Positions 16,963-37,900 of a DNA stretch of 64,000 bases are shown in pieces. The translations under genes and the position numbers were made by a program. Below the pieces are notes generated by a model. It saw only the letters and a list, made by a program, of their open reading frames with translations. It made no database searches and had not been told where the DNA came from. Position 1 is the first letter of the stretch; every line of letters begins with the position of its first letter. Source of the stretch: Mesorhizobium sp. 61-13 (lineage in GTDB: Bacteria > Pseudomonadota > Alphaproteobacteria > Rhizobiales > Rhizobiaceae); the NCBI GenBank assembly GCA_001897075.1, contig MKRZ01000089.1, positions 25,911-89,910 on the forward strand. The letters are read 5' to 3'.

Positions 16963-19839
16963 ATGACCCTCGATCTGTTCAGCGATGCCGAGGCCGAACC
17001 CACCCGTTGGTTCGTCGAGCTTGAGCAATCGACCGGCTCAAAGCCTGTCGACGGCCTCGTTCTTGTCGCTGGTTATGTCCCGACGGGACGTCCTCCCGAG
17101 GAAGTCGCGACCATGGAAAAGGCGCGACGTTACGGCGCGCACTCGGTGTTTTTCGAAGCGGGACGCAATGGGCGAGCCCCCGTCCCGCAGGCCTTCGTCT
17201 TCATCTCCAAGGACGGCACCGACGACAAGGAGTTCGCCGACCTGCACAAGCGGCTGTGGAGCTGGGGCGGCGTTCCAATCCTCTACCGGCGAACGCCCGG
17301 TCAGATTCAGCTCTTCCGCTGTGCGCATGACCCGGACTTCATCTCCGCGACCGGCGAGCAGATCTGCAAGCCCTTCAAGTTCCTCGACATCGGCTCCCGT
17401 ATCGCCGGGAAGGAAGCATGGTGGGATGCCGAGCGGATTCGCAACGGTACGCTCTGGGATGATCCGGATGCCTGCCGCATCATGCTGTCCGCCCAAAAGG
17501 CCGCTCACCGGAAGCTGGTAGACGTCGTCCGTGGACTGAATGACGAACTCAACACCAAGCGCCTGCTAACCGCGCCTTTGCGTCGACGGCTGCTCATCCT
17601 ATCCCTGCTGATCGCATACCTCGAAGAGCGCGGGGTCCTCCGGCCGGAGTTCTTTGGTCGCTATGTGAAGGGCGCGACCCGCTTCTTTGAAGTGTTGCGC
17701 GAAGGCGATGCGCTGGTCGAGATGCTCAAGGCGCTCGAAGACCGCTTCAACGGTCACGTCTTTGCGCTCAAGGATGAGGAAGCCGCGGCGCTGAAGGCCA
17801 GCCGGCAGTTGGGCCGGTTCGCCAGCCTGGTGGAGGGCTACGAGGATACCGGCGGTCAGCTCAGTTTCTGGCGCCTCTATTCTTTCAAGGATCTGCCGGT
17901 CGAGCTGATCAGTCACATCTACCAACTTTTCGTCACCGACACCGACAGTTCCGTCTATACGCCGCCCACCCTGGTTCGGCTGATGCTCGACGAGGCGCTG
18001 AGCTGGGATCGCATCGATCGCCTGATGGCCGGCAAGGAGATCATTCTGGACCCGGCATGCGGCTCTGGCGTCTTCCTCGTCGAGGCGTACAAGCGGCTGG
18101 TGCTGCATTGGCGCAGCCGCAACGATTGGGCCAGGCCCGGGGTCGATGAACTGCGCGCGCTCCTCGAGCGCGTTCACGGCATCGACCTGGAACTGGGCGC
18201 GGTCGAACTGGCCGCGTTCAGCTTGTGCCTGGCGCTCTGCGACGCGCTCGAACCCGAGGAGATCCGCGCCAGCGTCAAGCTCTTCCCCAAGCTGGCCGAC
18301 GCGTCGCTGCATCAGCGGTGTTTCTTTGAAGCTAAGGAAGAAGGTCTGATAGCGGCCCCCGTCGGCGTGCTGATTGGCAATCCGCCTTTCGAATCCAGCC
18401 TCACCACACCGGCGGCAAAGCGCGCCTATGACGCCTATGTCAAACAGCATGGCAAACTGGCCGACCAGCAGGTCGCCTACCTCTTCCTGCACGAGGCCAT
18501 GGGATTGACCGCCAAGGGCGGCGTCCTCAGCATGATCCAGCCCTCGGGCTTTCTCTACAATCAGCATGCCGGCGATTTCCGCGCGAATTTTTTCAAGCGC
18601 TGGAACGTGCGTGAGATCCTCGATCTCGTCTCGGTCCGCGGCCTGTTCAAGAAGGGTGACGCCGATCCCAAAGTCGTTGTCGTCGTCGCAGTGGCGGAGC
18701 CCGCAAAACCAGCATCAACGCTGCTGCACACGGTCTTCCGGAGAAACGGGCGGGCCAATGCCGAGCAGGGATTCGAAATCGACTATTACGATCTCCACCG
18801 CGTGCCGCATGCCGCTCTTTCCGGCAATAGTGACATCTGGAGGGCTAATCTGCTCGGTGGCGAACGTCTTCTGACTTTCGTTCAGCGGCTGCGCGGCCTC
18901 CGCACGCTCGGACACTATGCGGCTGAGCGCGAATGGAACAGCGGTGAAGGGTATATCGCCGGCCAAAAGGGAATCTCGCGACCGGCCGCGCACATCGTCG
19001 GGCAGCAGTTGCTGCCCACCAAGGCATTGTCCGCGACGGGCCTGAACCGATCCGCGCTCACCAAGGTGCCAAAGGCGCCCATCAAGGATCCCAAGTCGCA
19101 GGCGCGCTTCACGCCGCCCCTCCTGCTCGTGAAGGAGCATCAGGATCTCTACAACGCTATGTGGGAGGAGAGCTACCTCACCTACAAGCACGAGATCGTC
19201 GGGTTTGCTGCACCCAAGAAGGACCTGAAGCGGCTGCGCCAAGTTCGCGACTGGATCGCGAACAATCGTCCAGCCCTCCAGGCCTACGTCGCCAGCACGA
19301 GCATTCGCTTGTTCACGCAACGCGCCACCTCGATCGCCAGCGCCGACATCATGGCGCTTCCCTATCCAGAAGACGGTACGCTCGACCTGAGTGCCAATGA
19401 GCAAATCCTGGTCGACGATGTCGTGCGGTACTGGCGCGACTTCGTACGCACCGGCAGTGATTCCGATGTGATGAAGCTCGATGGACGAGAAGCGCTGCCT
19501 GCCTTCGCTGCTTCCTTCACCGCACAGATCAACACGGTCTACCCGACCACGCCGCTGTCGGCGCTTGAACCACAATCGTGGCCCGGCATCATCTGCCAGC
19601 CTTTCGTCTTTGGCGCCGGCCAGGTCGACTGGACCGGCGTCGATGACCTGCGGGGCCGACTGGACAACCTGCTCCGCGAGCAGCGCGGCTCGAGTATCAC
19701 GGTCACGCGCATTGCCCGGATTTACGACGGCAAGTTTGTCTTTCTGCTCAAGCCCGACCGCCTTCGCTACTGGCTCCGGTCGATCGCGCTGCGGGACGCC
19801 GATGACGTGCTCGCCGATCTACGTGCTCAGGGGTTCTAG
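16963..19839 (+). CDS. Large gamma-class N6-adenine DNA methyltransferase (958 aa) with long N- and C-terminal extensions
   Basis: VYTPPTLVRLMLDEAL, motif I LDPACGSGVFLVEAYKRL, HGIDLELGAVELAAFSL, motif IV LIGNPPFES. The flanking roughly 340 and 430 aa have no motif I can name. Confidence 0.8.
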   Translation: MTLDLFSDAEAEPTRWFVELEQSTGSKPVDGLVLVAGYVPTGRPPEEVATMEKARRYGAHSVFFEAGRNGRAPVPQAFVFISKDGTDDKEFADLHKRLWSWGGVPILYRRTPGQIQLFRCAHDPDFISATGEQICKPFKFLDIGSRIAGKEAWWDAERIRNGTLWDDPDACRIMLSAQKAAHRKLVDVVRGLNDELNTKRLLTAPLRRRLLILSLLIAYLEERGVLRPEFFGRYVKGATRFFEVLREGDALVEMLKALEDRFNGHVFALKDEEAAALKASRQLGRFASLVEGYEDTGGQLSFWRLYSFKDLPVELISHIYQLFVTDTDSSVYTPPTLVRLMLDEALSWDRIDRLMAGKEIILDPACGSGVFLVEAYKRLVLHWRSRNDWARPGVDELRALLERVHGIDLELGAVELAAFSLCLALCDALEPEEIRASVKLFPKLADASLHQRCFFEAKEEGLIAAPVGVLIGNPPFESSLTTPAAKRAYDAYVKQHGKLADQQVAYLFLHEAMGLTAKGGVLSMIQPSGFLYNQHAGDFRANFFKRWNVREILDLVSVRGLFKKGDADPKVVVVVAVAEPAKPASTLLHTVFRRNGRANAEQGFEIDYYDLHRVPHAALSGNSDIWRANLLGGERLLTFVQRLRGLRTLGHYAAEREWNSGEGYIAGQKGISRPAAHIVGQQLLPTKALSATGLNRSALTKVPKAPIKDPKSQARFTPPLLLVKEHQDLYNAMWEESYLTYKHEIVGFAAPKKDLKRLRQVRDWIANNRPALQAYVASTSIRLFTQRATSIASADIMALPYPEDGTLDLSANEQILVDDVVRYWRDFVRTGSDSDVMKLDGREALPAFAASFTAQINTVYPTTPLSALEPQSWPGIICQPFVFGAGQVDWTGVDDLRGRLDNLLREQRGSSITVTRIARIYDGKFVFLLKPDRLRYWLRSIALRDADDVLADLRAQGF

Positions 19840-20726: not shown

Positions 20727-23700
20727 GTGGACGATATTTTTCAAAGACTCGTTCGTCGGGATGAGCGCCGCTCCGAAGCCGAAATCCAGGCGGATGTACG
20801 ACAGTTCATCTTGTCCGCGCCCTTTGAGCTCGACGAGGGGGATGTCGCTCTGGTCGCCCTTGAATCCTCAGTCGGCAATCGACAGCGCATTGACGTCGAA
20901 GTTGGCGCTACGGTGATTGAAGTCAAACGCGATCTCCGCCGCGGAAGAGTCAAAGAGGAAGCGATTGACCAGCTTGCGGGCTATGTGGAACTGCGGATGC
21001 AGCAAACCGGCTTGCGATACGTCGGCGTTCTGACGGATGGAACAGAATGGTGTTGCTACCATCTCGTAGAAGGCGGACTAAGGGAGGTATCAAACGCGAC
21101 GTTCGGTTCACCTTCCGATGACTTGAGTCGTCTTGTCGTGTGGCTTGAGGGCGTCCTTGCCACCGCGAAGGGCATTCCGCCCACCCCGCAGAACATTGAA
21201 GCCCGCCTTGGGGCGAGAAGCAGCGCCTACGCATTGGATCGCGCAACTCTCTCCACCCTCTTCCAACAGAACCGCACGAATCCTAGCGTCCAGCTCAAGC
21301 GCACCCTTTGGTCACGGCTGCTCACGTCGGCCCTCGGTACGCAATTCGAGGATACCGACGATCTTTTCATCGAGCACACCCTTCTCGTCAACACGGCCGA
21401 GATTATCGCTCACGCCGTGTTGGGCCTGTCACTCGAGGCCCAAAACCCCGTTTCATTGCTGGGTGGGCACAAGTTTGATGAAAGCGGCATCTATGGTGTC
21501 GTTGAGCCCGACTTTTTCGATTGGGTGATCGAAGTGGACGGAGGCGAGCGTTTTGTGAGGACGCTGGCTAAGAGGCTGGGTCGGTTCGATTGGGAACACG
21601 TCCATCAGGATATCCTCAAGGTTCTGTACGAAAGCATCATCGCAGCCGAGACTCGCCAGCGCATGGGAGAATATTACACGCCCGATTGGCTAGCGGACGT
21701 TGTTGTCCAGCATGCAGTACCTCAGCCTTTGGCAACGCGTGTTCTCGATCCTGCCTGCGGGTCAGGGACATTCTTGTTCCATGCAATCAGATCGTACGTT
21801 GAGGCCGCCGAGCGAGACGGTATGTCTGTTTCCGACATGCTGGACTCGTTGACGAAAAGCGTCATCGGGATGGACCTACATCCTGTGGCGGTAACACTCG
21901 CCCGCGTTACCTACCTTCTTGCCATAGGCCGTGAGCGGCTCACTCACCCAGCACGTGGGACGATCCAGATTCCGGTCTATCTTGGCGACTCTCTGCAGTG
22001 GCAAGAGCAAAGTGCTGACCTCTGGGCTGCTGAGAATCTTGTCATTCGGGTGGACGATAAGCAGGAATTGGTGGGGCCAGAACTGCGCTTCCCTGACGGA
22101 CTACTTGATGATGCCGCCCGCTTCGACCAACTCGTAACCGAACTGGCGAACCGCGCGGCCAAGCGGAAGCCCGGTGCTGCGGTACCCGCCCTCACAGTCG
22201 TATTTCAACGCCTGGCGATTCCAGAGAAATACAGGAAAACAATCGAGGCTACTTTCGCAACGATGTGTCGCTTGCACGACGCAGGCCGGGATCACATTTG
22301 GGGCTATTTTGTCAGAAACCTGGCTAGGCCACTGTGGCTTTCGCGCGAGAAGAATCGCGTCGACGTGCTGATCGGCAACCCTCCCTGGCTCGCTCTGCGA
22401 CACATGACCAGCGACATGCAAGTCGCATTTCGAAACATGAGTGAGGCGCGCGGGTTGTGGGCCGGTGCCGAGAACGCCACACACCAGGATTTGTCGGGGC
22501 TCTTCGTCATTCGCGCCGCCGAGCTTTATCTGAAGCGCGGAGGCCGTTTCGCGCTCGTGATGCCAAACGCTGCATTGGATCGCGAACACTATTCCGGCTT
22601 CCGTCGCGGATACTATGGGGACGCCACGATCGGGCTGAAGCTCCAATTCAGCGCCTCGTGGGACCTGCGTCGTATACGTCCCCACTTCTTCCCTCGTGCG
22701 GCATGTGTCGCATTCGGCACGCGCTCGACACGTGGGGAGGAAATGACGGACGAAGCTACGATTTGGTCAGGACGACTGCCTCGGCCTAATGCACCCTGGT
22801 CAGAGGCTCGTCCGCTCCTCGTGCGCAGTGAAGGGCATGTGACGCGTACCGGCATGGGCCTCAGGTCACCCTATCACCCTGCTTTCGCCCAAGGTGCCGT
22901 CTTGCTTCCGAGATTCTTGTTCTCGGTTGAGGACCAAGTGAAACCACCCCTTGGCTTGCCCTCCGGGAAAGTAGCGGTCAAGTCGTCGAGGAGCGTCCAA
23001 GAAAAGAAGCCTTGGAAAGAGCTTCCAGCTCTAGAGGGCGTGGTCGAAAGCGAGTTCGTAAGACCCTACTTCAACGGCGAAAACATCCTTCCTTATTTGG
23101 CGGGCTCTCCAGAAAGAGCCGTCATCCCCTGCAATCCTAGCCGTCTTCTAACGAGCGACGAGATCGAGTTTCATCCTGGATTGCAGCACTGGTGGGAGCG
23201 CGCTGACGCGCTATGGAAAGAGCATTCCGGCGGAAAAATATCTTCGCTGCGGGGCCAACTGGACTACCAATCCAAGCTGTCGAAGCAGTTGCCCGTAGTT
23301 CCTCTTCGTGTCGTCTACAACCGCTCCGGAATGCATGTGGTCGCGGCAAAGGTGCGCGACAGGCGCGCGCTGATTGCAAGTGGATTGTATTGGGCAGCAG
23401 TGCATTCCGATGCAGAAGCTAATTTCCTTTGCGCAATCCTTAATGCTCCGATCACCACCGAATTGGTCCGGCCGTATATGACTTACGGCAAGGACGAGAG
23501 GGACGTAGCCAAGCACATTTGGGAGTTGCCAATCCCGACCTTCGACCCTGACGATACCGTTCATGCGCGGCTCGCCGAGCTGGGGCAATGGGCCGAACGC
23601 GAAGTTTCGAATTTTGCCATCAATGATAGCGTGCACTTCTCCGCCGTTCGTCGACACATTCGCCAGCACCTCGCCGCGTCCGCCGAGGCGGAGGAAATTA

Positions 23701-23729
23701 ACAATACCGTGTTTGAGCTGCTCGGGTAA
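20727..23729 (+). CDS. Type IIG/IIL-like restriction-modification enzyme (nuclease-methyltransferase fusion, 1000 aa)
   Basis: D-x8-E-x-K (RIDVEVGATVIEVKRDL), GEYYTPDWLADVV, motif I VLDPACGSGTFLFHAI, motif IV LIGNPPWLALRHM. Same layout as the open-ended gene at 1-2711. Confidence 0.8.
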   Translation: MDDIFQRLVRRDERRSEAEIQADVRQFILSAPFELDEGDVALVALESSVGNRQRIDVEVGATVIEVKRDLRRGRVKEEAIDQLAGYVELRMQQTGLRYVGVLTDGTEWCCYHLVEGGLREVSNATFGSPSDDLSRLVVWLEGVLATAKGIPPTPQNIEARLGARSSAYALDRATLSTLFQQNRTNPSVQLKRTLWSRLLTSALGTQFEDTDDLFIEHTLLVNTAEIIAHAVLGLSLEAQNPVSLLGGHKFDESGIYGVVEPDFFDWVIEVDGGERFVRTLAKRLGRFDWEHVHQDILKVLYESIIAAETRQRMGEYYTPDWLADVVVQHAVPQPLATRVLDPACGSGTFLFHAIRSYVEAAERDGMSVSDMLDSLTKSVIGMDLHPVAVTLARVTYLLAIGRERLTHPARGTIQIPVYLGDSLQWQEQSADLWAAENLVIRVDDKQELVGPELRFPDGLLDDAARFDQLVTELANRAAKRKPGAAVPALTVVFQRLAIPEKYRKTIEATFATMCRLHDAGRDHIWGYFVRNLARPLWLSREKNRVDVLIGNPPWLALRHMTSDMQVAFRNMSEARGLWAGAENATHQDLSGLFVIRAAELYLKRGGRFALVMPNAALDREHYSGFRRGYYGDATIGLKLQFSASWDLRRIRPHFFPRAACVAFGTRSTRGEEMTDEATIWSGRLPRPNAPWSEARPLLVRSEGHVTRTGMGLRSPYHPAFAQGAVLLPRFLFSVEDQVKPPLGLPSGKVAVKSSRSVQEKKPWKELPALEGVVESEFVRPYFNGENILPYLAGSPERAVIPCNPSRLLTSDEIEFHPGLQHWWERADALWKEHSGGKISSLRGQLDYQSKLSKQLPVVPLRVVYNRSGMHVVAAKVRDRRALIASGLYWAAVHSDAEANFLCAILNAPITTELVRPYMTYGKDERDVAKHIWELPIPTFDPDDTVHARLAELGQWAEREVSNFAINDSVHFSAVRRHIRQHLAASAEAEEINNTVFELLG

Positions 23730-23877
23730 AAGTCGCGACCCACACCGGTTAGTTTCGTTCGAATAACTTCGACCTTGGTGTGTTTCTCAACCGGGTGCAT
23801 TACAATACACTACAAATCACGTCGCGGGGGCGACAAGCTACGCGCAGCGTGGCACGTCACCGGTCGGCGTCTTCGCG

Positions 23878-24735
23878 GTGACCCCCATGCTCCAGTTCGA
23901 CGGCCGTTGGAGATTTGACAGTCCAGGTCCGATAGAATCCGGCGTCGACGACGCGTTCCTTGACCTCATCAATCGGATTGCCGGACAGGCTCCGCGTAAA
24001 TCCATCCTCGAGCATTTCAAGTCACGGTTCGCGGCCGCGGCCAACATCCAATACTGGCCGAGCAGCAACGAGCGGTTCGCCGCCGAGGATCTCACTACCG
24101 CCATGTCCGAAGCAGCGGCGAACGCGCCTTTATTCATAGAAGCGTTCTGGCTTGGCTGTGAGGAACTCCGGCTCCGTCATCCCGAAATGGTGTTGCCCGA
24201 CGCGGGGCGGATCAACCGCATCCTCACCGACACAAGCGCCGGCTATCAGCTCGATCCGCCGATGCTGGTTGCCACCCGTGTGCATATTCCCATCACGGTT
24301 CCGACCCCGCCTCCATCACTGGATGTGCAGGCCCGGTCGCTCATCGAGCAGGCATTGCAGGCGTCAGAACGCGCCCTGGCCGAGGGGAACGGCCGACAGG
24401 CCGTCCAGGAAGTACTGTGGCTCCTGGAGACCATCTCCACTGCATTTCGCAGTCCTGAGGTGTTCGACGGCACCATTCAGGGACGCTACTTCAACAAGAT
24501 CATCGGTGAGTTGCGCCTGCGCGGTCGCGGGCATCAGGAACAGATCCTGCAATGGATGATGACATTGCATGGATACCTGTCCTCCCCCACCGGCGGCGGG
24601 GTGCGCCATGGTGTCGACCTCAAGGAAGGCCTCGCCTTGGGAATCGAAGAGGCGCGTCTCTACTGCAATCTCATCCGTAGCTACCTGACATTTCTCATGG
24701 CGGAGCATGAGCGCCTGACAAGGCGCGCCGCATGA
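23878..24735 (+). CDS. Hypothetical protein A of a three-gene operon (285 aa)
   Basis: GTG/ATG start. The C-terminal half looks helical and contains ..LHGYLSSPTGGGVRHGVD.., a weak Abi_C/HEPN-like resemblance only. Its stop overlaps the next ATG. Confidence 0.6.
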   Translation: MTPMLQFDGRWRFDSPGPIESGVDDAFLDLINRIAGQAPRKSILEHFKSRFAAAANIQYWPSSNERFAAEDLTTAMSEAAANAPLFIEAFWLGCEELRLRHPEMVLPDAGRINRILTDTSAGYQLDPPMLVATRVHIPITVPTPPPSLDVQARSLIEQALQASERALAEGNGRQAVQEVLWLLETISTAFRSPEVFDGTIQGRYFNKIIGELRLRGRGHQEQILQWMMTLHGYLSSPTGGGVRHGVDLKEGLALGIEEARLYCNLIRSYLTFLMAEHERLTRRAA

Positions 24736-25619
24736 CCGTCTATATGACGAAGACTTGGGGATTTGGATCGCCATCGGGGCCACTTCAATTTAGCCAGCGC
24801 GGGTGGCGGGACAGAGCTCGCGGCCTCCTCCGGCTAGGCGATCTTGTGGTGATCGTCGGCACGATGGGCGATGAAACCCATTCCGAAGAGCGCGGCATGA
24901 TCCTTGGCCTCATGGAGCCGACCACGACGACCGTCAGCTCACTCGATTACGACCTCGCCCGTGGCCCACGCGATTTCGATGAGGCTGGCAACTACCGCTG
25001 GCCGTTCGGGCTCGAGCTCTTGCGTGCCTGGCGCTTCCTCGAACCAAGAACCGCTTTGTCGGCGATATCGCCACGGCGCTTCAGCATGGATTCCGCGCAG
25101 GGAATCGTACCGCTCCTAGCAGATGAGGCCGAGGCGATCCTGCTCTTGCCCAGAGAACCGGTCGCGCTGCTCCGGCCCGCTCGAGCCGAGGCACGGGTCG
25201 CGGGTCTAGAGGCAGCTCGCCGGCGAGGTGCCCCGCCACCAACGACCACGCGCACCGGCATCATGCATATGCGGAGGGCACCAACCTTCACCTACGCCAT
25301 GATGATCGAAGGCGCTTCACCCCCTTCGTTCAAGATTGGCTGGGCCTTTGACTGGAGGCAGCGGGAGCGCAGTTTCAACCAGGCATCCATGCCCGAGCTC
25401 GGTGGCGTTCGATATCGCACGATCCTCCACGAACTGTGGGACACGGCCATAGATGCCTTTCGCATGGAGCAGGCGCTCCTCCGCCATTTCAATGCTCTCC
25501 GGCATGCGCGCAATCAGGAGGTGGTATCCGCGGTTGCGGCAGACACGATCCAGAAGTCGTGGATCGACTACCTCTCGAACCACAGGAAGGGGAGCACGCG
25601 GGGAGGAAAAGGCACATGA
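24732..25619 (+). CDS. Hypothetical protein B: PUA/EVE-like N-terminal region plus GIY-YIG/T5orf172-like C-terminal region (inferred)
   Basis: N-terminus: KTWGFGSPSGPLQFSQRGWRDRARGLLRLGDLVVIVGT...YRWPFGLELLRAW. C-terminus: FTYAMMIEG..FKIGWAFDWRQRERSFN...FRMEQALLRHFNALRHARNQEV, which follows a GIY..YIG..R..E order. ATGA overlaps at both ends. Confidence 0.55.
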   Translation: MTVYMTKTWGFGSPSGPLQFSQRGWRDRARGLLRLGDLVVIVGTMGDETHSEERGMILGLMEPTTTTVSSLDYDLARGPRDFDEAGNYRWPFGLELLRAWRFLEPRTALSAISPRRFSMDSAQGIVPLLADEAEAILLLPREPVALLRPARAEARVAGLEAARRRGAPPPTTTRTGIMHMRRAPTFTYAMMIEGASPPSFKIGWAFDWRQRERSFNQASMPELGGVRYRTILHELWDTAIDAFRMEQALLRHFNALRHARNQEVVSAVAADTIQKSWIDYLSNHRKGSTRGGKGT

Positions 25620-26452
25620 AGAAGCCGTCCGCGATGGTCAGCAAGAGCACCAGGTTTCCCTTCCAGGTTGCCGTATCCTGTTGGATTGACCTGCTCGGTT
25701 ATGGCGAGATGATCTCCGCCTCTGGGTTCAATCCACTGCACGCCGAAGCGCGCGATGCCCTCGCTCGCATCAGGACGTTTCATCGCATCGTCGCCGAGCA
25801 CAGCGCGAGATACTTTCCGACATTGGTGAATGATGGGGCGGTCGCCTATCGTGACCTCTCCCTGCGATCGCGCTCACCTACTCACGATTTTCTCGTGCGG
25901 GCGTGGAAGATGTTCGAGGCGGTTCGAAAAGCGGACACGGACAGTGGCCATCCAGGACCGCGGATGGTCTTGGCCTGCGGGTTTCGCATGCTGGGACGGC
26001 GTGCCGGCCTGGACGCGTCTCGCGAACACTTCAAATCAATTGTCGATCGGTTGCAGAGGGGCGGTATCGGCGCCGAGCAAGCGGTGCGCGAGGCAGCATC
26101 GATGCGGCCGCGCTTCGATATCATCCCGCAACTGCAAGCGAACTTCGCCTTCACAAAAGCCTATGTCGCCGAGCAGACCGGGACGAAGGGCAAACTTCCT
26201 GGTCCCGCATTCTACGTGGACATGGCGATATTCGGCGACGACCGTCCGCAATGGATTGATCTCGGCCCTGACATTGACTGGGCACACCCCAAGTTGAACT
26301 TACATGCGGTTTTCGCCGAGGCCCGTGGGTTGCAAGATGGGCGACATCCGAGCGGCGGCCCGACGGATATTCGCGATGGCCTTGCCGTTGCGCAGACGCT
26401 TGCCAACGATCCAAATGTCCTGGCGGCACTGCGCGCCGCGGAAAAATCGTAA
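25616..26452 (+). CDS. Hypothetical protein C: class III nucleotidyl-cyclase-like (palm-domain) protein (inferred)
   Basis: Motif order: VAVSCWIDLLGYGEM (F-x-D-I-x-G-F-T-like), TLVNDGAVAY (G-D-like second Asp), PRMVLACGFRMLGRRAG (R-I-G-I-H-x-G-like), ANFAFTKAYV (V-N-x-A-S-R-like). The start ATG at 25616 overlaps the gene B stop. Confidence 0.5.
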   Translation: MKKPSAMVSKSTRFPFQVAVSCWIDLLGYGEMISASGFNPLHAEARDALARIRTFHRIVAEHSARYFPTLVNDGAVAYRDLSLRSRSPTHDFLVRAWKMFEAVRKADTDSGHPGPRMVLACGFRMLGRRAGLDASREHFKSIVDRLQRGGIGAEQAVREAASMRPRFDIIPQLQANFAFTKAYVAEQTGTKGKLPGPAFYVDMAIFGDDRPQWIDLGPDIDWAHPKLNLHAVFAEARGLQDGRHPSGGPTDIRDGLAVAQTLANDPNVLAALRAAEKS

Positions 26453-26488
26453 ACATCGCCTGGGAACGGTCTTCGTCCCTATCTACGG

Positions 26489-29400
26489 CTAGTCCGCAGG
26501 AACACCCGTCCCGCCAGGCTGCTTCTTCGAGCGCTTCTGACTACGCCGGTCCAGAGCGGCGATCATCTCTGCCGGCCGCGAAACATCCAACACAACGACC
26601 TCCAATTTGCCTTTCAGGCGTGTCGGAATATCGCCAAGGAGCATCGCCTCCAGCCCCTCAGCGCTTGAAGGGGCTTGTTGCCCATCGCTCCGGGTGGGGA
26701 TCGAAAACTCGGTCCCGAACCAGAAGACCAGATACACTCCGTGTCCGTCGGCCCCCGCGTCCGATGCGTACCCGCTGAGCTGACTGAGTGGTGAAGTCCA
26801 AAGCTCCTTATTGTAGTGACGCTTAGCTTCGATCGGCAGGTTCTTGCCGGCGTGGCTGAGAAGCAGAACGTCGGCTCGCGTGTTCTCCCCGCGCCGTGCT
26901 TCAGGGAGACTGGCGACAATCCCGTATCTCTCCAGGCGAACCCGCATCAGTTCGAGCAGCCGGTCCCGATCCTCATTTTCAATCTGTGGTGTCGTTGCCG
27001 CACCGTCCTTGTCGGTGTTCCAGAATCGTTTCCATGGGGTTTCGCTGCCTGTTCGCAACGTGCTCCTGTACCGATCGATCTCCTCAAGGACCACCGCTGT
27101 GAGATCTGCCGGACTTGCAGGGGCTCCCCCCGAAAGCGCCGCGACGAGGTCGCCCACTGGCGGCGCCACATAGAGATCATCCCGCTTCATCCTGGCATGT
27201 TCGGCGGCCGCGTGGGCGAGCTGCGGCTTCCAACTCGGATGTACCTCTGATGAGAGCGTTTTCAGAATCTCGCCTGCGTCGTTACTTTTCGAAGCGCTCA
27301 GGCGGCGGATGGCTGCCCTGATGATCCCGCTGACGGTGTTGGAGTGCCGCCAGTCATCCTCCTCGGCCTCGTGGGCTTTCCCAAGAACTGCGATTCGGAT
27401 GCGATCCAGCACATCGGGCTGCGGAGACAATTCAAAGAGGGCCGTCGCCAGATCGCCGTTGGGTCGCAACAACGCGCCCCGGACCTGCTCATCGGACAGT
27501 CCGGCAGAATATGCAGTCGGGTCGAGAGCCAGCGCGACAAAGCTCCAGATTTCGCGCTGCTCATCGCCAAGATCGGTCCGCTTTAGTGCATCGTCGGCAA
27601 AGCCCGCCAAATCGTCGGCAGCAAGCACAGTTGCGGCAGCGACCAAAGCCTGCCGCAATGCGGGCATCGGCAGGTTAGGCCGATGGTTCAGCAGTTCACG
27701 AAGGCATGCCGCGATAAGCCCATGCTCTTCGGCGCTCACCAAGTGATGAAGGCCATTGAGATCGTCATCTCCAGCGTCAAGGGCAGCTTTCCAGTACCGC
27801 AACATCTGGCTGACGCCTTGCTCGCGATCCTGCGCGAGACGTTGCACGGCCCAAGTGGCAAGCGAGGGTCCGTCGTCGCCCGCAAAATAGCTCTGACGCA
27901 TTCCGACCAGCGCGCAGACCAGTGGGGCCGCTGCAAGCTCCGCTTCCCGACCATGCAAGAGCCCCTGATGCAGTCCGGCGGCTACAACATATTCCTGCGC
28001 ATAGGCGCCGTTGGTTGCCTCCGCCCGCCCGAGACTCTCCGCATCGACCTTGATGTCGGTGTGGATCGCGAACTGGACAAACCCTTCTGCAATGGCTGCC
28101 GTAATCTCCCCGTTGGTGTAGCTCGTGACCTTGGCGAGCGGCTCCTCCTTCTTTGATATTCTCGCGTTGCGGTAGTGATCGGCCGCCCACTTCAGCGCGC
28201 CGAATTCGCTCGCGACGCCGCTCGCGATCGCGGCGAGCTTCGGTGTCAACGCAGCGATGTTGTCCTTCCGCGAGACTTCCGTCTTTGCGTCCTGTTGGGC
28301 CTGCCTTTGCGCCTGCTGCTTCTTCCACTTGGCGTTCGGGTCGGACAGCAGCAACTTTATGAATCCGGTGTGGCCACCTTCCTCTTTGAGAATGGAGACC
28401 ATCTTTTCGCGCCACTTTGGCCAACGCGCTTCACCGCGCGCCGTGTACGCGGCAATCTGGAAGAGCCGTTTGCGCCATGGTCCCTTCGCCTCGTTCCGGG
28501 CCAGCACAATCAGTGCCTCGACCAACGCCTCCGAGGGGAGCCGGCGCATGGTCGACATGTAGTGGTTCACAACAACCCAAGGCCCATCGGTGGGTGCGCC
28601 GGATTTCGACATGGCGAGAAAGAAGTCGAGTTCCCGCCGCTGAGGGTCGGCGTCCATCCACTTCTGCATCGCCTCGACCACGTCGCTATCGAGCATGTCC
28701 CAGACATGGTCGCGGGCGTTGTTTATCCAAGTCCACAAACGCTCGGCGTCAACCTCGGGACGCCGTTCAATTGTGGACACCAGCGCCTGATCGATGAAGA
28801 AGCGGACTTGCGATTTCTGTCGGAGCCCGCCCGTCGACCCGTGCGAAATCGGCAGATCGAACAGGTCTTCCGGCGCAGATCGACGCAGGGCAAGAGCCAG
28901 CGCATTCAACGCCCCGCGGTCCTCAACCTCATCATCATCCGATGGTGCGGGCAATGCGCTGAAATCGGCCAGGAGTTTGCGAATCTCGGATGCCGCTATC
29001 GCGTCGGCCGGCATTGCCGCCAGCAGTCTTGCCCTCAGTACAACCTGGCCGGCGTCGACGGGCTGAAGCTCCAGCTCAGATATCAGGGCTCGGCGTATTG
29101 CCGTTCGGTCCCCTCCGGCTCTGGCGATCACTTCTGAGGCGCGTTCGCGCATCCACAACGGTCGGCCGGCTTCGAGAACGATCTCACGAAGTTTGCTCTG
29201 AATTCCCTGGACCGGTAGTCCGTCCGCAAGAGCCTGCAGGACCGTAAGCTGGAGATGACTGCGGATGTCCGTGTCCAGGATCGTCGCGAAGTCCCCGGCG
29301 AGGTCCTCGCCGGCGAGCCCGCCCAGCACGGTCGCGTCGTCCTGCGACGAGAGAAAATAGGGATCGTCGCGGTCGAGATTGAGAAGGATCGCTTTCCGCC

Positions 29401-30556
29401 CCAGGTTGTCGAAAGCGGCAGCATCACCATAAGCGAGCACGGTCGCAGCATCCCGATCGATGAGACGGATTGCGCCCTGCGCGTCTCCCCGCTTGTGAAG
29501 ATGCGCCGCGAACCAGGCATAAAGTCCTCGAAGCTCGCTGGGTGCCTGGCGATCCGCGCCGGTGATGAGCGCGATGGCACGACGCAGGGGGAAAGCGTGA
29601 TTGTTTCCGGTCCCCGTTACGATCCTTGCCAGGAAACGAGCAGCGAGAAACTCTGCCACCGTGCGATGGCAGACCTCGAAGGCGTGACCCTCGCCGCGAA
29701 ACAACGCCGTGTCCAAGGCGGCAGCAACATGTGCAGGCTCGATGTTGAGCCCGTTCGTGCTCACATACTCATTGGCGCCACCCGTTTGAGGTGGCATGGC
29801 ATTGGAGCGCCAGACCGCCCTGGCACCGGAAGCGAGGACGTAGAAGCATAGTCTTGAGGCCGCTTCGACAATGGCCTCGACGCTGGGTCGGGGATCGATC
29901 ACACGCTCGGGATCGTATTCGTGGGCCAGTGCCCAGATGGCCTTTTCGAACAACTCGAAGCGCGTTCCAGGCCATGTTCCATCGGCCGCCACGGCCGAGT
30001 GAAGCAACCGGAGACTCAAGGGGCTTTCGAGGAAGGCCGCTGCGCCGCGCGTCCGCGCCTCGATCACGAATGCTCGCGGATCCACGGCGCCGAGCGCGGC
30101 CAGAACGGCTTCGGCCTCGCTTTCGTCCAAGGGCAAAAGGCGAGCCACGACGATGGAACTATTGTTGGCCGCCCGCCGCATGGCCCCCAGATCGGCGGCG
30201 TCGCGCCAGTCCTCAGCCCGACAGGTAAGGCGCCAGCGATGATGTTTGCTCGCTGACAATGTGTTGGCGAGTTGCAGGAGCTTGTCCTTGCCGTTCTCGC
30301 CCGTCCGATACTCATCCAACGCATCGAGGTAGACCGTATCGGGGGCCGGCAGCGGAACACCGCTCATCGCTTCGCGACACGTGACGACTTCGCCCCCTTC
30401 GGCCGCGGCCTCATGGCGCAATGCCGTCGACTTACCGAGGCCGGGCTCGCCGAGCAGAACGACACACGGTTCATCGCGCAGCGAACTCAGGCGGCGTTCG
30501 CTCGCTTCTGCCTCGCCGTGAACAAGGACGCGTCGGTCTAGGGATGCAATCTTCAT
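26489..30556 (-). CDS. NACHT/STAND-like P-loop NTPase with long helical middle region and a C-terminal PD-(D/E)xK-like domain (about 1355 aa)
   Basis: Walker A VVLLGEPGLGKST and Walker B VYLDALDEY near the N-terminus. C-terminus: ...RADVLLLSHAGKNLPIEAKRHYNKELW (D...E-x-K). Preferred start is ATG at 30556 (MKIASLD). Confidence 0.75.
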   Translation of the reverse strand: MKIASLDRRVLVHGEAEASERRLSSLRDEPCVVLLGEPGLGKSTALRHEAAAEGGEVVTCREAMSGVPLPAPDTVYLDALDEYRTGENGKDKLLQLANTLSASKHHRWRLTCRAEDWRDAADLGAMRRAANNSSIVVARLLPLDESEAEAVLAALGAVDPRAFVIEARTRGAAAFLESPLSLRLLHSAVAADGTWPGTRFELFEKAIWALAHEYDPERVIDPRPSVEAIVEAASRLCFYVLASGARAVWRSNAMPPQTGGANEYVSTNGLNIEPAHVAAALDTALFRGEGHAFEVCHRTVAEFLAARFLARIVTGTGNNHAFPLRRAIALITGADRQAPSELRGLYAWFAAHLHKRGDAQGAIRLIDRDAATVLAYGDAAAFDNLGRKAILLNLDRDDPYFLSSQDDATVLGGLAGEDLAGDFATILDTDIRSHLQLTVLQALADGLPVQGIQSKLREIVLEAGRPLWMRERASEVIARAGGDRTAIRRALISELELQPVDAGQVVLRARLLAAMPADAIAASEIRKLLADFSALPAPSDDDEVEDRGALNALALALRRSAPEDLFDLPISHGSTGGLRQKSQVRFFIDQALVSTIERRPEVDAERLWTWINNARDHVWDMLDSDVVEAMQKWMDADPQRRELDFFLAMSKSGAPTDGPWVVVNHYMSTMRRLPSEALVEALIVLARNEAKGPWRKRLFQIAAYTARGEARWPKWREKMVSILKEEGGHTGFIKLLLSDPNAKWKKQQAQRQAQQDAKTEVSRKDNIAALTPKLAAIASGVASEFGALKWAADHYRNARISKKEEPLAKVTSYTNGEITAAIAEGFVQFAIHTDIKVDAESLGRAEATNGAYAQEYVVAAGLHQGLLHGREAELAAAPLVCALVGMRQSYFAGDDGPSLATWAVQRLAQDREQGVSQMLRYWKAALDAGDDDLNGLHHLVSAEEHGLIAACLRELLNHRPNLPMPALRQALVAAATVLAADDLAGFADDALKRTDLGDEQREIWSFVALALDPTAYSAGLSDEQVRGALLRPNGDLATALFELSPQPDVLDRIRIAVLGKAHEAEEDDWRHSNTVSGIIRAAIRRLSASKSNDAGEILKTLSSEVHPSWKPQLAHAAAEHARMKRDDLYVAPPVGDLVAALSGGAPASPADLTAVVLEEIDRYRSTLRTGSETPWKRFWNTDKDGAATTPQIENEDRDRLLELMRVRLERYGIVASLPEARRGENTRADVLLLSHAGKNLPIEAKRHYNKELWTSPLSQLSGYASDAGADGHGVYLVFWFGTEFSIPTRSDGQQAPSSAEGLEAMLLGDIPTRLKGKLEVVVLDVSRPAEMIAALDRRSQKRSKKQPGGTGVPAD

Positions 30557-30764
30557 GAGCAAGAAATACTGTCGCCCGTGTCAGCGACAAAGAACAAAAT
30601 GCGAGCCCTGGGCTGCTCCACATCGCGTTCGCTGTGGATTCTCCATATTGCAGGAGCCTTGCTTTCGACCGCAGTTTCTTCGACAGACTTAGCAGGGGAC
30701 CGACAGCACACCGGCAATCCTCGGCTCGGCAACCCAACGGTCACAAACTGCGAGGCTTTCGAGC

Positions 30765-31613
30765 TTGCCGGCCATTATCGACGTCTGGAGCGCAAACACA
30801 TTCGACTCGGTCTTGCTTAAGTTCCTGACGTCGAAGGCAGACCTGGTCCGGGCCTATTTTGACACCGACAGGGACATCTTTCTTTCCTACGATCTAGGCC
30901 GTGGGCAACCGCGACCGATGATGCGCCCCGACAACCCCTACGCCTCGGACTTTTATAGTCTGCTCGACACCGCCGACGAACTCATGGCTGCGCGCACAAT
31001 CCGCGCCTTTCACTACACGCGGCTTACCGATGATGAAGTCACCGACCTGTCTCGTTCCGGCATCCATCTGTCGACACCGGCAACGCTGCTCCGGCGCTTC
31101 AACACACTGGTTACATCAGCCGTTTTGCCGCGCGCGATAGCCGACAGCCTATACGCGCAGAGTCCGTTCCACAGCGATCAGCGCGAAGCCCGAGCCGGAA
31201 AGTTCTGGATGGTATCGCATCCCACACCACCTGAAGATGGCGGCGTTGTCCCGCTCATGAAGCACTGGGGTGGCGAAGTCGCCTCCATGTGGGTCAGCGA
31301 CCCGGGGCTCTTGGCTCCATTGCAGGCCATCGGCCGCGCACGCATCCTCGAGGTGGCCGTGCCGCTCGCGTTGACACGGCACAGCTACGCCGCCGGCAAG
31401 GCGGTCGTCGCCACCTTTGGTCGCTCCGTGGGAGCTATCCCGGAAAAGGGGGCCTTCGACCTCTATATAGATCAGGCATTGCCGCCTTCCGCCGTTCTTT
31501 CCGTCCACACCGAAGGCGACCCTGCCTACACCGCTGTGGGCACCACTTATCCCGCAGGGTTTACCGACGTGGATGCAGGTCGCTGGAAAGAACTGACTGG
31601 CGAGGAAGACTGA
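30765..31613 (+). CDS. Hypothetical protein (282 aa)
   Basis: Long ORF, TTG start in the track, divergent from the NACHT-like gene. No confident motif. Confidence 0.5.
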   Translation: MPAIIDVWSANTFDSVLLKFLTSKADLVRAYFDTDRDIFLSYDLGRGQPRPMMRPDNPYASDFYSLLDTADELMAARTIRAFHYTRLTDDEVTDLSRSGIHLSTPATLLRRFNTLVTSAVLPRAIADSLYAQSPFHSDQREARAGKFWMVSHPTPPEDGGVVPLMKHWGGEVASMWVSDPGLLAPLQAIGRARILEVAVPLALTRHSYAAGKAVVATFGRSVGAIPEKGAFDLYIDQALPPSAVLSVHTEGDPAYTAVGTTYPAGFTDVDAGRWKELTGEED

Positions 31614-32705: not shown

Positions 32706-33467
32706 ATGGGTCAGCCGGCCGCCAGCCCTGCCATCGCTGCGCTTCGCGAGCGAATCGCACGCCTCGAAGGCGGGCCGGCGCGTCATCGTGCGGCGCTTCC
32801 GTTCGGCGTCCCCGCTATCGATAGGGCACTGCCGGGAGGTGGGCTGGCGCTCGGGGCGCTGCATGAGGTGGCGGGCGGCCGCAACGGGGCAATCGATGGG
32901 GCGGCGGCGGCGTTATTTGCCGCCGGCATCGCCGCGCGCACCAAAGGCAAGGTGCTCTGGTGCGTCACCCGGCAGGATCTCTTCGCCCCGGCGCTCGCCC
33001 AGGCAGGGCTGCTGCCCGGCCGTGTCGTCTATGTCGAGGCCGGCGACGAAGCCTCGGTGCTCGCCTGTTTCGAGGAAGGGCTTCGCCATGGCGGGCTCGG
33101 CGCCGTCGTCGCGGAACTGGCCCGTCTTCCCATGACCGCCTCCCGCCGACTGCAACTGGCCGCCGAGACATCCGGCGCCATCGGCATCGCTATCCGCCGC
33201 TGGCGCCGACAGACCGAAGCCACCGATTTTGGACAACCGACCGCCGCGGTCAGCCGCTGGCGCGTCTCCGCGCTTCCCTCCCGCCCCTTGCCGGTTCCCG
33301 GCATCGGCCGCGCCCGCTGGCAGCTCGAACTCATCCGGGTGCGGGCGGGAGAAAGCGCCGATTTCGAAGTGGAAGCCTGCGATGACAAGGGTCGTCTCGC
33401 TCTATTTTCCGACCTGGCCGACCGATCGCCTGCGGCGCGCGATGGGGACATCCGCGCCCTCGGCTGA
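32706..33467 (+). CDS. imuA: ImuA (RecA/SulA-like component of the mutagenesis cassette)
   Basis: MGQPAASPAIAALRERIARLEG...ALPFGVPAIDRALPGGGLALGALHEV... First gene of the imuA-imuB-dnaE2 order. Confidence 0.85.
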   Translation: MGQPAASPAIAALRERIARLEGGPARHRAALPFGVPAIDRALPGGGLALGALHEVAGGRNGAIDGAAAALFAAGIAARTKGKVLWCVTRQDLFAPALAQAGLLPGRVVYVEAGDEASVLACFEEGLRHGGLGAVVAELARLPMTASRRLQLAAETSGAIGIAIRRWRRQTEATDFGQPTAAVSRWRVSALPSRPLPVPGIGRARWQLELIRVRAGESADFEVEACDDKGRLALFSDLADRSPAARDGDIRALG

Positions 33468-34902
33468 AACCCCGATCGTCATGCTCGGCCGGCAGGGAAA
33501 CCGGCGGCTGGTGCTGGCCGCCGATGCGGCGGCGCGCGCGGCTGGCCTGCGCGTCGGCATGCCGGCGAGCAAGGCCCAGGTTCTGGTGCCCAACCTCCAG
33601 AGCTTCGACCTCGACGCGCCGGGCGATGCCGCGGCGCTCGATAGAATGGCGCTCTGGTGCTTGCGCTACGCGCCGATCATCGCCGCCGACCCGCCCGATG
33701 GTCTCATCATCGACACCACGGGCGCCGATCATCTGCATGGCGGCGAAGAGGCGATGCTCGAGGGGCTGGTATCGCGCCTGGCGGCATCCGGGATCGACGC
33801 TCGGGTCGCAGTGGCGGACACCTGGGGCGCCGCCCATGCCTGCGCACGTTTCCTCGCCCGTCCGACCTTCATCGTCCCGACGGGGCAAGCTCCGGCGATC
33901 GTGCGCGGCCTTCCGATCGGCGCCTTGCGGCTTCCCCACGAGATCATCTCCGGCCTGCTCACGCTCGGCTTCGAGCGGGTCGGCGACCTCGAAGCGGCGC
34001 CGCGCGCCTCTCTGACCCTGCGCTTCGGGCCCGAACTCGGCCGCCGCCTCGACCAGGCCCTGGGCCGGCGTGGCGAGCCATTCGAGCCCGTCCGCTCGCC
34101 CGAAATCATCGAAGTCCGCCGCGCCTTCGGCGAGCCGATCAGCGCGGCGGAAACCATCGCCCGCTATACCGGCAAGCTCGTCACGGCTCTCTGCGAAGCG
34201 CTCGAGACCAGGGGCCTCGGCGTCCGCCGGCTCGACCTCGTCTTTCACCGCGTCGATAGCCGCTTCGAAGCCATTCGCGCCGGGACCGCCGTGCCCGTGC
34301 GCGACGTCAAGCGGCTGACCCGGCTCCTCACCGACCGGATCGAGACCGTCGATCCCGGCTTCGGCATCGAGGTCATGACGCTGGCCGCGACCCTCACCGA
34401 GCCGTTCGGCGCCCGGCAGATCATCTCCTCGCTGGTCGAGGAACCCGAGCCCGACATCACCGACCTCATCGACACGCTCAGCAATCGCATCGGCGAGCAG
34501 CGACTCTATCGCTTTGCTCCGGTCGAGAGCGACGTACCGGAACGCGCCATCCGCCGCGTTGCGCCGACCGCGCCGGATGACGGGACGAACTGGCCAGGCG
34601 ACTGGCCGCGCCCGCCGCGTCTGCTGGCGCATCCCGAACCCATCGAGACCATGGCGCTGCTGCCCGACCACCCGCCGGTCTGGTTCAGTTGGCGCGGCAT
34701 CCGGCATCGCGTCGCGCGCGCAGACGGTCCGGAACGCGTTTTCGGCGAATGGTGGCAGCGCGATGCCGAACTGATCGCGGTCCGCGACTATTTCCAGGTG
34801 GAGGACGCGTCCGGGGAGCGCTTCTGGATCTATCGTGCCGGCGACGGCGAGGATCCCGAGACCGGCTCGCACAAATGGTTTCTGCATGGGGTCTTCGCAT
34901 GA
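33382..34902 (+). CDS. imuB: ImuB (Y-family polymerase-like)
   Basis: [19 protein letters not shown]...[24 protein letters not shown]... The stop overlaps the dnaE2 ATG (ATGA at 34899-34902). Confidence 0.85.
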
Positions 34903-37900
34903 GCGGGCCGCGCTATGCCGAATTGCAGGTCACGAGCCACTTCTCGTTCCTGCGCGGTGCGAGCAGTTGCGATGAGCTTTTCGCCCAGGCCACCATACTC
35001 GGCATCGAGGCCCTGGCCGTGCTCGACCGCAATTCGCTGGCCGGCGTTGTGCGTGCCCATCAGGCAGCCAAGGATACCGGCATCCGGCTCATCGTCGGCT
35101 GCCGCCTCGATCTGGTCGATGGCATGTCGGTGCTGGTCTATCCGACCGATCGCGCCGCCTATTCCCGGCTGTGCCGGCTGCTCACCCTGGGCAAGAAGCG
35201 CGGCGGCAAGGCAAAGTGCCACCTCGAGTGGGACGACGTCGCCACCTACGCCGAGGGTCTCATCGCGGTCCTCGTCCCCGCTCAGGCGGATGAGACCTGC
35301 GCGATGCAACTGCGGCGCCTGCGCGACACCTTCAAGGACCGCGCCTATCTCGCTTTGACCCTGCGGCGCCGGCCCAACGATCAGCTTCGCCTCCACGATT
35401 TGTCCAACCTCGCCACCCGGATGCGGGTTCCGACGGTGGTGACGAACGACGTTCTGTTCCACGAACCCGGCCGGCGCATCCTGCAGGATGTGGTGACGGC
35501 CATTCGCCACAACATCACCATTGACGCGCTGGGCTTTAGGCGCGAGCGCCATGCTGACCGCTATCTCAAGCCGCCCGAGGAAATGGCACGGCTGTTCTCG
35601 CGCTATCCCGAAGCTTTGGCGCGCACGCACGAGATTGCCCGCCAGTGCCGCTTCTCGCTCGACGAACTGGCCTATCAATATCCGGAAGAAAAGATGCTGC
35701 CCGGGCTGACGGCGCAGCAGGCGCTTGAGAAACTAACCTGGGAAGGCGCCGAACGGCGCTATCCCGAAGGCGTCCCGGACAAGGTCATCGCCCTCATCAA
35801 ACATGAATTGCGGCTGATCGCGACGCTGCAATATGCGCCGTATTTTCTGACCGTGAACGCCATCGTGCAGTTCGCACGCAGCCGGGACATCCTGTGCCAG
35901 GGCAGAGGATCGGCCGCCAATTCGGCGGTTTGCTACGTGCTGGGCATCACCAGCATCGATCCCGAACGCAACAATCTCCTCTTCGAGCGTTTCGTCAGCC
36001 AGGAGCGCAAGGAGCCCCCTGATATCGACGTCGATTTCGAGCATGAACGGCGCGAGATCGTCATGCAGTGGGTCTACGAGACCTACGGCCGCGATCACAG
36101 CGCGCTCTGCTCGACCGTCGTGCGCTATCACACCAAGGGCGCCGTCCGCGACATCGGCAAGGCGCTCGGCCTGCCCGAGGACGTCACCAAGATGCTGTCC
36201 TCGCAGGTCTGGGGTCACGGCGAGGGCATCGACGAGTCGCGTGCCCGCGAACTCAATTTCAACCTGGCCGATCGCCGGCTGCGGCTGACGCTGGAACTGG
36301 CGCAGCAGTTGGAAGGGACGCCCCGGCACCTCTCGCAGCATCCGGGCGGCTTCGTTCTGACCAATGACAGGCTTGATGACCTAGCGCCGATCGAGCCGGC
36401 CCGCATGGTCGATCGCCAGGTCATCGAGTGGGACAAGGACGACATCGACATCCTCAAATTCATGAAGGTCGACGTGCTGGCGCTCGGCATGCTCACCTGC
36501 ATGAAGCGCAGCTTCGATCTGCTCGCCGAGCACAAGGGCATGACCCTCGACCTCGCCACCATCCCGGCCGAGGACCCGGCGACCTACGCCATGATCCGCA
36601 AGGCGGACACGATCGGCGTCTTCCAGATCGAAAGCCGGGCACAGATGTCGATGCTGCCGCGCATCAAGCCGCGCACCTTCTACGATCTGGTCGTGGAGGT
36701 GGCCATCGTTCGCCCCGGTCCGATCCAGGGCGACATGGTCCATCCCTATCTTCGCCGCCGCGAGGGCAAGGAGCCGGTCGAATTCCCGACGCCCGAGCTG
36801 GAGCGCGTGCTGGGCAAGACGCTCGGTGTACCGCTATTCCAGGAGCAGGCCATGCAGGTCGCGATGGTCTGCGCCGGCTTTTCCGCCGGCGAAGCCGACC
36901 AGTTGCGCCGCGCCATGGCGACGTTCAAGCACACCGGCGGGGTCAGCAAGTTCAGGAACAAGCTGATCGGCGGCATGATCGCCAATGGTTATACCCCGGA
37001 CTTCGCGGCCAACACCTTCAGGCAACTCGAAGGCTTCGGCAGCTACGGCTTTCCCGAAAGCCACGCCGCTTCGTTCGCCCTGATCGCCTATGCGTCATCC
37101 TGGATGAAATGCCACCATCCCGACGTCTTCTGCTGCGCGCTGCTCAACTCCCAGCCGATGGGCTTCTATCTGCCGGCACAGATCGTGCGCGATGCCCGCG
37201 ATCATGGTGTCGAGATCCGACCCGTCTGCATCAATGCCAGCCGCTGGGACTGCACGCTGGAACCGGCCGGCGAGGATGGCCGGTTCGCCGTCCGTCTGGG
37301 TCTCCGCCTCGTCAAAGGTCTCGCCAATGCCGACGCCGGCGCGATCGTCGCGGCACGGGCGGACGAGCCCTTCGCCTCCATCGACGACCTCTGGCACCGC
37401 GCGGGCGTTCCCGCGGCGTCGCTCGTGCAACTCGCCGAAGCCGATGCCTTCCGCGCCGATCTCGGCCTGGCGCGTCGCGAGGCGCTCTGGGCCCTCAAGG
37501 GATTGCGCGACGAACCCTTGCCGCTCTTTGCCGCCGCGTCGGCGCGTGAGCGGCAGACCGTCGCCGAGATTCACGAACCGGCCGTGCCCCTGCGCGCGAT
37601 GACGGCCGGACGGGAAGTGGTCGAGGATTACGGGCATGTCGGGCTCACCCTGCGCAGTCATCCGCTGTCCTTCCTGCGCGCCGACCTTGTCCGACGCCGC
37701 ATCGTGACCTGCCGCGAGGCAATGCAGGCCCGCGACGGCCGCTGGCTGGAGGCCGCGGGGCTGGTGCTGGTGCGCCAGCGCCCCGGTTCGGCCAAGGGCG
37801 TCATGTTTCTCACCATGGAAGACGAGACCGGCGCCGCCAATGTCGTGGTCTGGGTCAAGGTCTTCGAGAAGTTCCGCCGCGTGCTGCTCTCCTCGTCGAT

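Follow-up and report, generated by a model that had tools for sequence, protein, structure and literature searches.

A divergent EruA-like NACHT protein with a C-terminal PD-(D/E)xK domain from Mesorhizobium is a candidate single-gene antiphage receptor of the Erebus/Avs10 family

The textbook order of STAND (signal transduction ATPases that have numerous domains) proteins places the effector before the nucleoside triphosphatase (NTPase) and the sensor, and in EruA-like proteins this order is reversed. The name Erebus, to which EruA belongs, is said to come from van den Berg et al. 2024 (Cell Host Microbe 32:1427). Here we describe an EruA-like gene at positions 26489-30556, minus strand, of a 64,000-nucleotide stretch of contig MKRZ01000089.1 from Mesorhizobium sp. 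61-13; this whole stretch is referred to below as the window, and the gene as the NACHT gene. Erebus, Hypnos and bNACHT64 are equated with Avs10 in a 2026 Nature paper (PMC13581612), which in its account of this family describes sensing of the phage major capsid protein, a monomer of HK97 fold, by a tetratricopeptide repeat (TPR)-like helical sensor that wraps it. The same paper reports that mutation or deletion of the effector abolished cell death in all the Avs families it tested, and the mechanism of Erebus is termed unclear in a passage of a 2026 preprint.

From homology and predicted structure we consider it very probable that the product of the NACHT gene is an antiphage receptor of the Erebus (EruA)/Avs10 family that works alone, as a single protein, by the mechanism proposed below. 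Phage protection is a property given for the EruA family by its name and by the literature, and would extend to the window protein by homology. The parts of the gene and protein to which we refer are as follows.

26489-30556, minus strand: EruA-like gene, encoding 1355 aa and ending in TAG at 26489-26491 (open reading frame list, translation, NCBIfam NF058535 match)
29327-30556, minus strand: NACHT NTPase module, residues 1-410, with nucleotide-binding domain and helical and winged-helix subdomains (AlphaFold2, Foldseek)
30425-30451, minus strand: Walker A/P-loop GEPGLGKST, residues 36-44 (sequence, conservation)
30308-30334, minus strand: NACHT-type Walker B VYLDALDEY, residues 75-83 (sequence, conservation)
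30218-30226, minus strand: TCR motif, residues 111-113 (conservation; placed where strand 107-112 of the AlphaFold2 model ends)
27245-29326, minus strand: alpha-solenoid, helical throughout and presumed to sense the ligand, residues 411-1104 (AlphaFold2, Foldseek)
26552-27244, minus strand: predicted C-terminal PD-(D/E)xK nuclease domain, residues 1105-1335, core approximately 1190-1330 (AlphaFold2, Foldseek, conservation)
26822-26902, minus strand: putative catalytic residues E1219, D1229 and E1243-x-K1245 (invariant in 42 of 42 sequences, on AlphaFold2 strands)
26492-26551, minus strand: variable basic C-terminal tail, residues 1336-1355, of which neither length nor sequence is conserved among homologues

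The family assignment begins with the NCBIfam (release 20) profile NF058535, "NACHT domain-containing antiphage protein EruA", which aligns in a single stretch from residue 17 to 1326 of the protein against profile positions 11-1318 of 1318 (E 1.5e-280). Since no homologue named EruA turned up in the homologue search, we chose our reference EruA by its NF058535 score. When the profile was run on 11 other full-length relatives, ten gave 629-959 bits, and the eleventh, a 1338-aa protein of Dickeya zeae (P0321), scored 1059.4 and so passed the family cutoff of 1000 bits. In BLASTP against this Dickeya EruA, the first 494 residues of the window protein are 32% identical (E 4e-46) and the last 253 are 36% identical (E 3e-37), the latter including the conserved residues of the nuclease motif, PE...RAD...IELKRDY. 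The window protein and Erebus EruA share a length class of approximately 1320-1360 aa, the order NACHT NTPase, helical sensor, C-terminal PD-(D/E)xK domain, identical ATPase and nuclease motif residues, and an occurrence as single genes in defence islands. They differ in sequence, the window protein being only 32-37% identical to the Dickeya EruA in the enzymatic domains and approximately 15% in the sensor.

Several results count against placing the protein in this family or reading its C-terminus as a nuclease. The NF058535 score of 934.5 bits lies below the curated equivalog cutoff, so that by the NCBI rule the protein is not called EruA, and BLASTP against the Dickeya protein finds no similarity across residues ~482-1077. 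Given this diverged sensor, the capsid-protein trigger may not be transferable to the gene's subclade. At the C-terminus, the Foldseek E values of the predicted nuclease domain are weak (best 2.9e-3, TM scores approximately 0.32-0.42, top probability 0.99), and sequence and profile searches of the PDB gave no significant match to any solved structure. The gap in the middle is covered by hhalign, in which a profile of 28 members of the gene's own clade (A1) aligns with one of 14 members of the clade containing the Dickeya EruA (A4) end to end over 1285 columns (100% probability, E 2.5e-141). The two sensors are thus aligned at the profile level, although they are 15-17% identical and below BLASTP detection. 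Because the profile comparison spans what BLASTP left out, the protein can be read as a full-length, divergent EruA homologue with the same architecture, and on sequence comparison we assign it as a sub-cutoff member of the named Erebus (EruA)/Avs10 antiphage family, in a mainly alphaproteobacterial subclade.

A preliminary description of this DNA, made from the sequence alone, had suggested that a nuclease placed behind the sensor might represent a distinct, inverted architecture. The EruA profile is collinear with the protein to its last position, and the cutoff-passing Dickeya EruA has the same C-terminal domain and motifs. The suggestion is refuted on that description's own terms, because the family has already been named and tested with this same layout.

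As characterised in the Nature paper (PMC13581612), Avs10 shares with the window protein a STAND NTPase and a helical sensor and kills in an effector-dependent way; the Avs10 proteins it tested come from Enterobacteriaceae (e.g. EhAvs10), whereas the sensor of the window protein is strongly diverged. Hypnos HyoA is likewise a NACHT antiphage protein, but its profile, NF058534, is approximately 110 residues longer and reaches just 48 bits over residues 128-772, below its cutoff of 1200. Some members of the present family align to the last positions of the HyoA profile, and the C-terminal domain is probably common to HyoA and the EruA-like family. Avs1-4 and typical bNACHT proteins also combine a STAND NTPase, a helical sensor and an effector of restriction-endonuclease fold, and Avs4 and Avs3 are among the structural matches described below; in those proteins, however, the effector is N-terminal, whereas here the predicted nuclease is C-terminal and follows the sensor. 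A scan with PADLOC-DB 2023, a library that predates Erebus, returned nothing useful.

We modelled residues 1-1104 with AlphaFold2 from a 12-sequence alignment (predicted local distance difference test, pLDDT, 83.5). Residues 1 to approximately 410 are modelled as an NTPase of alpha/beta type that includes helical and winged-helix subdomains, and the top Foldseek matches of this model in the PDB are NOD2, NLRC4, NLRP9, NLRP3, NAIP5, Avs4 and Avs3 (E 7e-7 to 1e-3). A Pfam scan of the protein gave sub-threshold P-loop and nSTAND3 matches only (19.6 bits against a cutoff of 27.2). An NTPase at the N-terminus with both Walker motifs in the first ~90 residues had been noted in the preliminary description; the model and its matches bear this out with a fold like that of nucleotide-binding, leucine-rich-repeat receptors (NLR) at the extreme N-terminus. 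The P-loop strand begins at residue 31 and is preceded by only ~27 residues with a short beta-hairpin; Walker A begins at residue 36. Neither the sequence nor the model of residues 1-1104 shows an effector ahead of the NTPase.

Conservation was read from a joint alignment of 42 sequences drawn from both clades. K42, D78, D81, E82 and R113 do not vary in any of the 42; within the clade alignment G36, E37, P38, G39, G41 and K42 of Walker A, and C112 and R113 of the TCR motif, are invariant too. We infer that R113 occupies the sensor-1 arginine position typical of NACHT proteins. Because some of the aligned relatives are only 24-39% identical overall and the motifs are invariant in every one, neither the Walker motifs nor those of the nuclease domain can be taken as chance matches.

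Residues 411-1104 are wholly helical in the model, mostly at pLDDT 80-95, and Foldseek with residues 1-1104 also finds HEAT/ARM solenoids (transportin-3, condensin Ycg1, SF3b1). The helical, repeat-like stretch that had been noticed after the NTPase is therefore present, as a solenoid of approximately 700 aa plus approximately 85 aa of linker helices (residues 1105-1189). The solenoid is the most diverged region of the protein, with 15-17% identity to the EruA clade as against 32-33% for the NACHT module, 34-37% for the C-terminal domain and 37-42% for the nuclease core, and the same gradient of conserved ends and a diverged middle is found within clade A1 itself. A middle that evolves fast between conserved enzymatic ends is the pattern that would be expected of an immune receptor binding a rapidly changing ligand.

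The C-terminal domain was modelled separately, over residues 1105-1335, from 19 sequences (pLDDT 80.6, predicted template modelling score 0.73). The model contains the alpha-beta-beta-beta-alpha-beta order of the restriction-endonuclease fold; its elements, numbered as residue minus 1104, are a helix at 89-105, strands at 109-114, 126-130 and 135-142, a helix at 151-161 and a strand at 169-175. D1229 occupies the start of beta-2 and both E1243 and K1245 fall inside beta-3, the canonical catalytic positions of PD-(D/E)xK enzymes. E1193 (in alpha-1), E1219, D1229, E1243, K1245 and Q1259 are invariant in 42 of 42 sequences, the cutoff-passing EruA included. The segment RADVLLLSHAGKNLPIEAKRHYNKELW corresponds to residues 1227-1253. 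Among the best PDB matches found by Foldseek with this model are NucS/EndoMS, SfsA, the LmuA (Cap4) nuclease of Lamassu, Hjc, EcoO109I, EcoRV, McrC and Avs4. The D...E-x-K nuclease pattern recorded earlier at the C-terminus thus falls in a modelled PD-(D/E)xK fold, with E...D...ExK invariant throughout, and residues that stay invariant across distant clades are clean targets for mutation.

Folds of the PD-(D/E)xK type are often non-catalytic. The domain could accordingly be a DNA-binding, ligand-sensing or oligomerisation module and not the killing effector, with toxicity arising from ATP consumption or another activity. The moderate structural matches (the best E value being that given above) and the failure of Pfam, NCBIfam, PADLOC and PDB sequence searches to return any nuclease family fit this idea. 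We give it very little credence, since the full catalytic constellation is invariant and sits at the canonical beta-2 and beta-3 sites of the model, the AlphaFold2 models and Foldseek reveal no further domain of the protein that could serve as effector, and loss of the effector abolished cell death in the Avs families tested in the paper cited above (PMC13581612).

Searched alone, the C-terminal 231 residues match 1695 representative clusters, 1319 of them at E < 1e-10, and in nearly all of these the domain lies at the C-terminal end of proteins of ~1350 aa. Five proteins of 220-270 aa (P0128, P0151, P0182, P0212 and P0257) begin with a methionine and consist of the C-terminal nuclease domain alone. 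Nuclease-only proteins of this kind (200-270 aa) may be stand-alone effectors, or may be fragments from short metagenome contigs.

The mechanism we propose for the Erebus-type receptor starts from a resting state in which the N-terminal NACHT NTPase would be ADP-bound and locked against the solenoid, with the C-terminal nuclease inactive. On infection the solenoid would bind a phage protein, by homology most likely the capsid protein monomer that is the published trigger of the family (PMC13581612), and this binding would free the NACHT module from autoinhibition. Nucleotide exchange would then lead to oligomerisation, and the oligomerised PD-(D/E)xK domains would become an active nuclease that cuts DNA, the likely substrate, and presumably aborts the infection.

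The gene lies among other defence-related and mobile features of the window, listed here with the coordinates used below.

16963-19839 and 20727-23729, plus strand: two Eco57I/MmeI-type (type IIG-like) methyltransferase-nuclease restriction-modification genes, back to back, directly left of the operon
23878-26452, plus strand: three-gene operon without family matches, converging on the NACHT gene
25616-26452, plus strand: third gene of the operon, probably 278 aa, with a 4-nt overlap with the stop of the second gene
26453-26488, no strand: spacer of 36 nt between the convergent stop codons (open reading frame coordinates)
30557-30706, minus strand: co-travelling upstream region (DNA identity with Brucella anthropi to 30706 and with Bosea to 30693)
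30569-30590, minus strand: hairpin with an 8-bp stem (terminator-like scan), ending 12 nt upstream of the NACHT gene ATG
33229-38165: imuB/dnaE2-type cassette, right of the NACHT gene

From the type IIG genes and the imuB/dnaE2-type cassette, the gene can be assigned to a mobile defence island. The upstream gene at 30765-31613 is divergent, begins 208 nt from the NACHT gene and matches nothing in Pfam, NCBIfam or PADLOC; the neighbour genes scanned showed no DUF4143 or AAA_14 match, and there is no translationally coupled upstream partner. The surroundings of homologues are of the same kind and change from one to the next. In Brucella anthropi the homologue has MmeI-type restriction-modification and GmrSD neighbours inside an integrase-bearing element, in Bosea it adjoins Lamassu-like and SIR2 genes, in Bradyrhizobium TIR and PIN-TPR genes, in Dickeya transfer (Tra) genes of an integrative and conjugative element together with ThsB-TIR, and on a Pantoea plasmid Ppl and Abi. 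Genes for integrases and transposases are frequent close to homologues. Because the neighbours of the homologues differ each time, the gene is most likely a self-sufficient, single-gene defence system carried on mobile elements.

The three-gene operon on the left bears on a different reading, in which the NACHT-nuclease and the genes at 23878-26452 form one four-gene system, the operon products for example modulating the receptor or being licensed by it. The 6.8-kb block 23840-30621, which holds the operon and the NACHT gene, recurs at 92-94% DNA identity in three different genera, in Shinella daejeonensis, Pseudotabrizicola formosa and a Reyranella metagenome-assembled genome (MAG), and the four genes must therefore have moved together recently. 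In Brucella anthropi the shared part, 25606-30706, takes in only the third gene (278 aa, 90% identical) and the NACHT gene; the two converge there too, in surroundings that otherwise differ. The association nevertheless decays quickly: Bosea shares 26316-30693, where an intact NACHT gene is accompanied by no more of the third gene than its final 137 nt, and Allomesorhizobium shares the NACHT gene alone, at 80% DNA identity. A tblastn search found no relatives of the three operon genes beside the Bradyrhizobium, Algihabitans and Dickeya homologues, the plasmid homologues of Pantoea, Ralstonia and Vibrio have unrelated neighbours in their annotated flanks, and convergent transcription speaks against a shared operon. 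We consider a four-gene system decidedly unlikely. In its obligate form it was rejected, as the operon is absent beside the more distant homologues. Whether the gene works with the operon or independently of it had been posed as a check in the preliminary description; co-inheritance holds for the near-identical copies of the block and fails beside the distant homologues. The comparison indicates a recent transfer between genera followed by stepwise erosion of the defence cassette, and we read the linkage of operon and NACHT gene as hitch-hiking within a young cassette.

The mainly alphaproteobacterial, sub-cutoff subclade might have kept the ATPase and nuclease of Erebus while its sensor was re-targeted from the HK97 capsid protein to some other protein of a phage or mobile element; in a weaker version, the co-transferred genes at 23878-26452 would modulate the receptor. 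We regard this as rather unlikely, and the subclade is a reasonable place to ask if capsid sensing is universal in the family.

Relatives of the window protein were collected with a word-index search, which gave 187. The best 120 of the 187 are nearly all 1330-1400 aa long and come mostly from Hyphomicrobiales, the closest among them being 93, 91 and 89% identical. In a genome scan most of the family falls in Alphaproteobacteria, with further occurrences in Paraburkholderia, Thermomonas, Nitrospira and an Acidimicrobiales MAG; the gene's own subclade is mainly alphaproteobacterial (Hyphomicrobiales/Rhodobacterales). Plasmid-borne copies occur in Rhizobium, Agrobacterium, Ralstonia, Pantoea, Vibrio and Burkholderia. 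The source databases name the relatives "hypothetical" or "NACHT domain-containing protein".

The gene could also be a non-defence STAND protein, such as a signalling or transcription-associated ATPase, that lies in the island by chance. Clades of these proteins switch between defence and non-defence roles, according to the relevant passage of the Nature paper (PMC13581612), and Pfam sees in the relatives just a domain of unknown function (PF28130, DUF8371). Set against this are the full-length homology to an experimentally named antiphage family, the consistent location in defence islands and mobile elements, and the lack of a DNA-binding helix-turn-helix output domain in the Pfam scan and the AlphaFold2 model; a non-defence role is extremely improbable. 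Proteins labelled "hypothetical" or "NACHT domain-containing" at NCBI and DUF8371 in Pfam become readable as Erebus/Avs10-type, NLR-like antiphage nucleases, and beyond correct annotation the finding matters little.

Some features of individual relatives are recorded here. PF28130 (DUF8371) is annotated in many family members. Rhizobium sp. R634 carries two copies (L026 and L027) on one 539-kb contig, the C-terminal domain of each being ~70% identical to that of the window protein; one genome can carry two paralogous receptor copies. An EruA-like subset of ~1395 aa (P0279, P0280, P0284, P0289, P0292, P0298, P0305 and P0318) has an additional PF00816 (H-NS-type) domain in precomputed annotation. 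This points to the gain of a DNA-binding domain by the receptor, presumably an N-terminal one, given that the proteins of the subset exceed typical members by approximately 50-60 aa.

The reading frame of the NACHT gene runs on the minus strand without interruption from the ATG at 30556 to the TAG at 26489-26491. A TTG at 30562, two codons upstream of the ATG, would give the longest possible open reading frame; the ATG is preferred because the N-termini of homologues (MKIA/MRTA/MIIA-LDRRV) coincide with it. The extent and length of the gene as first described are confirmed by the open reading frame list, the translation and these homologue starts. The 36 nt between the convergent stops were likewise given correctly, the plus-strand TAA lying at 26450-26452 and the spacer being exactly 26453-26488; a consensus terminator scan called no terminator in it. 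On the other side of the spacer, the third gene of the operon probably starts at ~25616 and not with the 338-aa maximal open reading frame from 25436, because its orthologue in Brucella anthropi is called at 278 aa and DNA homology to that species begins at 25606.

Between the hairpin at 30569-30590 and the ATG of the NACHT gene, nothing resembling a Shine-Dalgarno sequence can be seen. The hairpin might serve to control translation or transcription, or be a mere remnant. Its sequence reads TTGTCGCTGACACGGGCGACAG, then TATTTCTT, and the hairpin region is kept alongside the NACHT gene in Brucella anthropi and Bosea.

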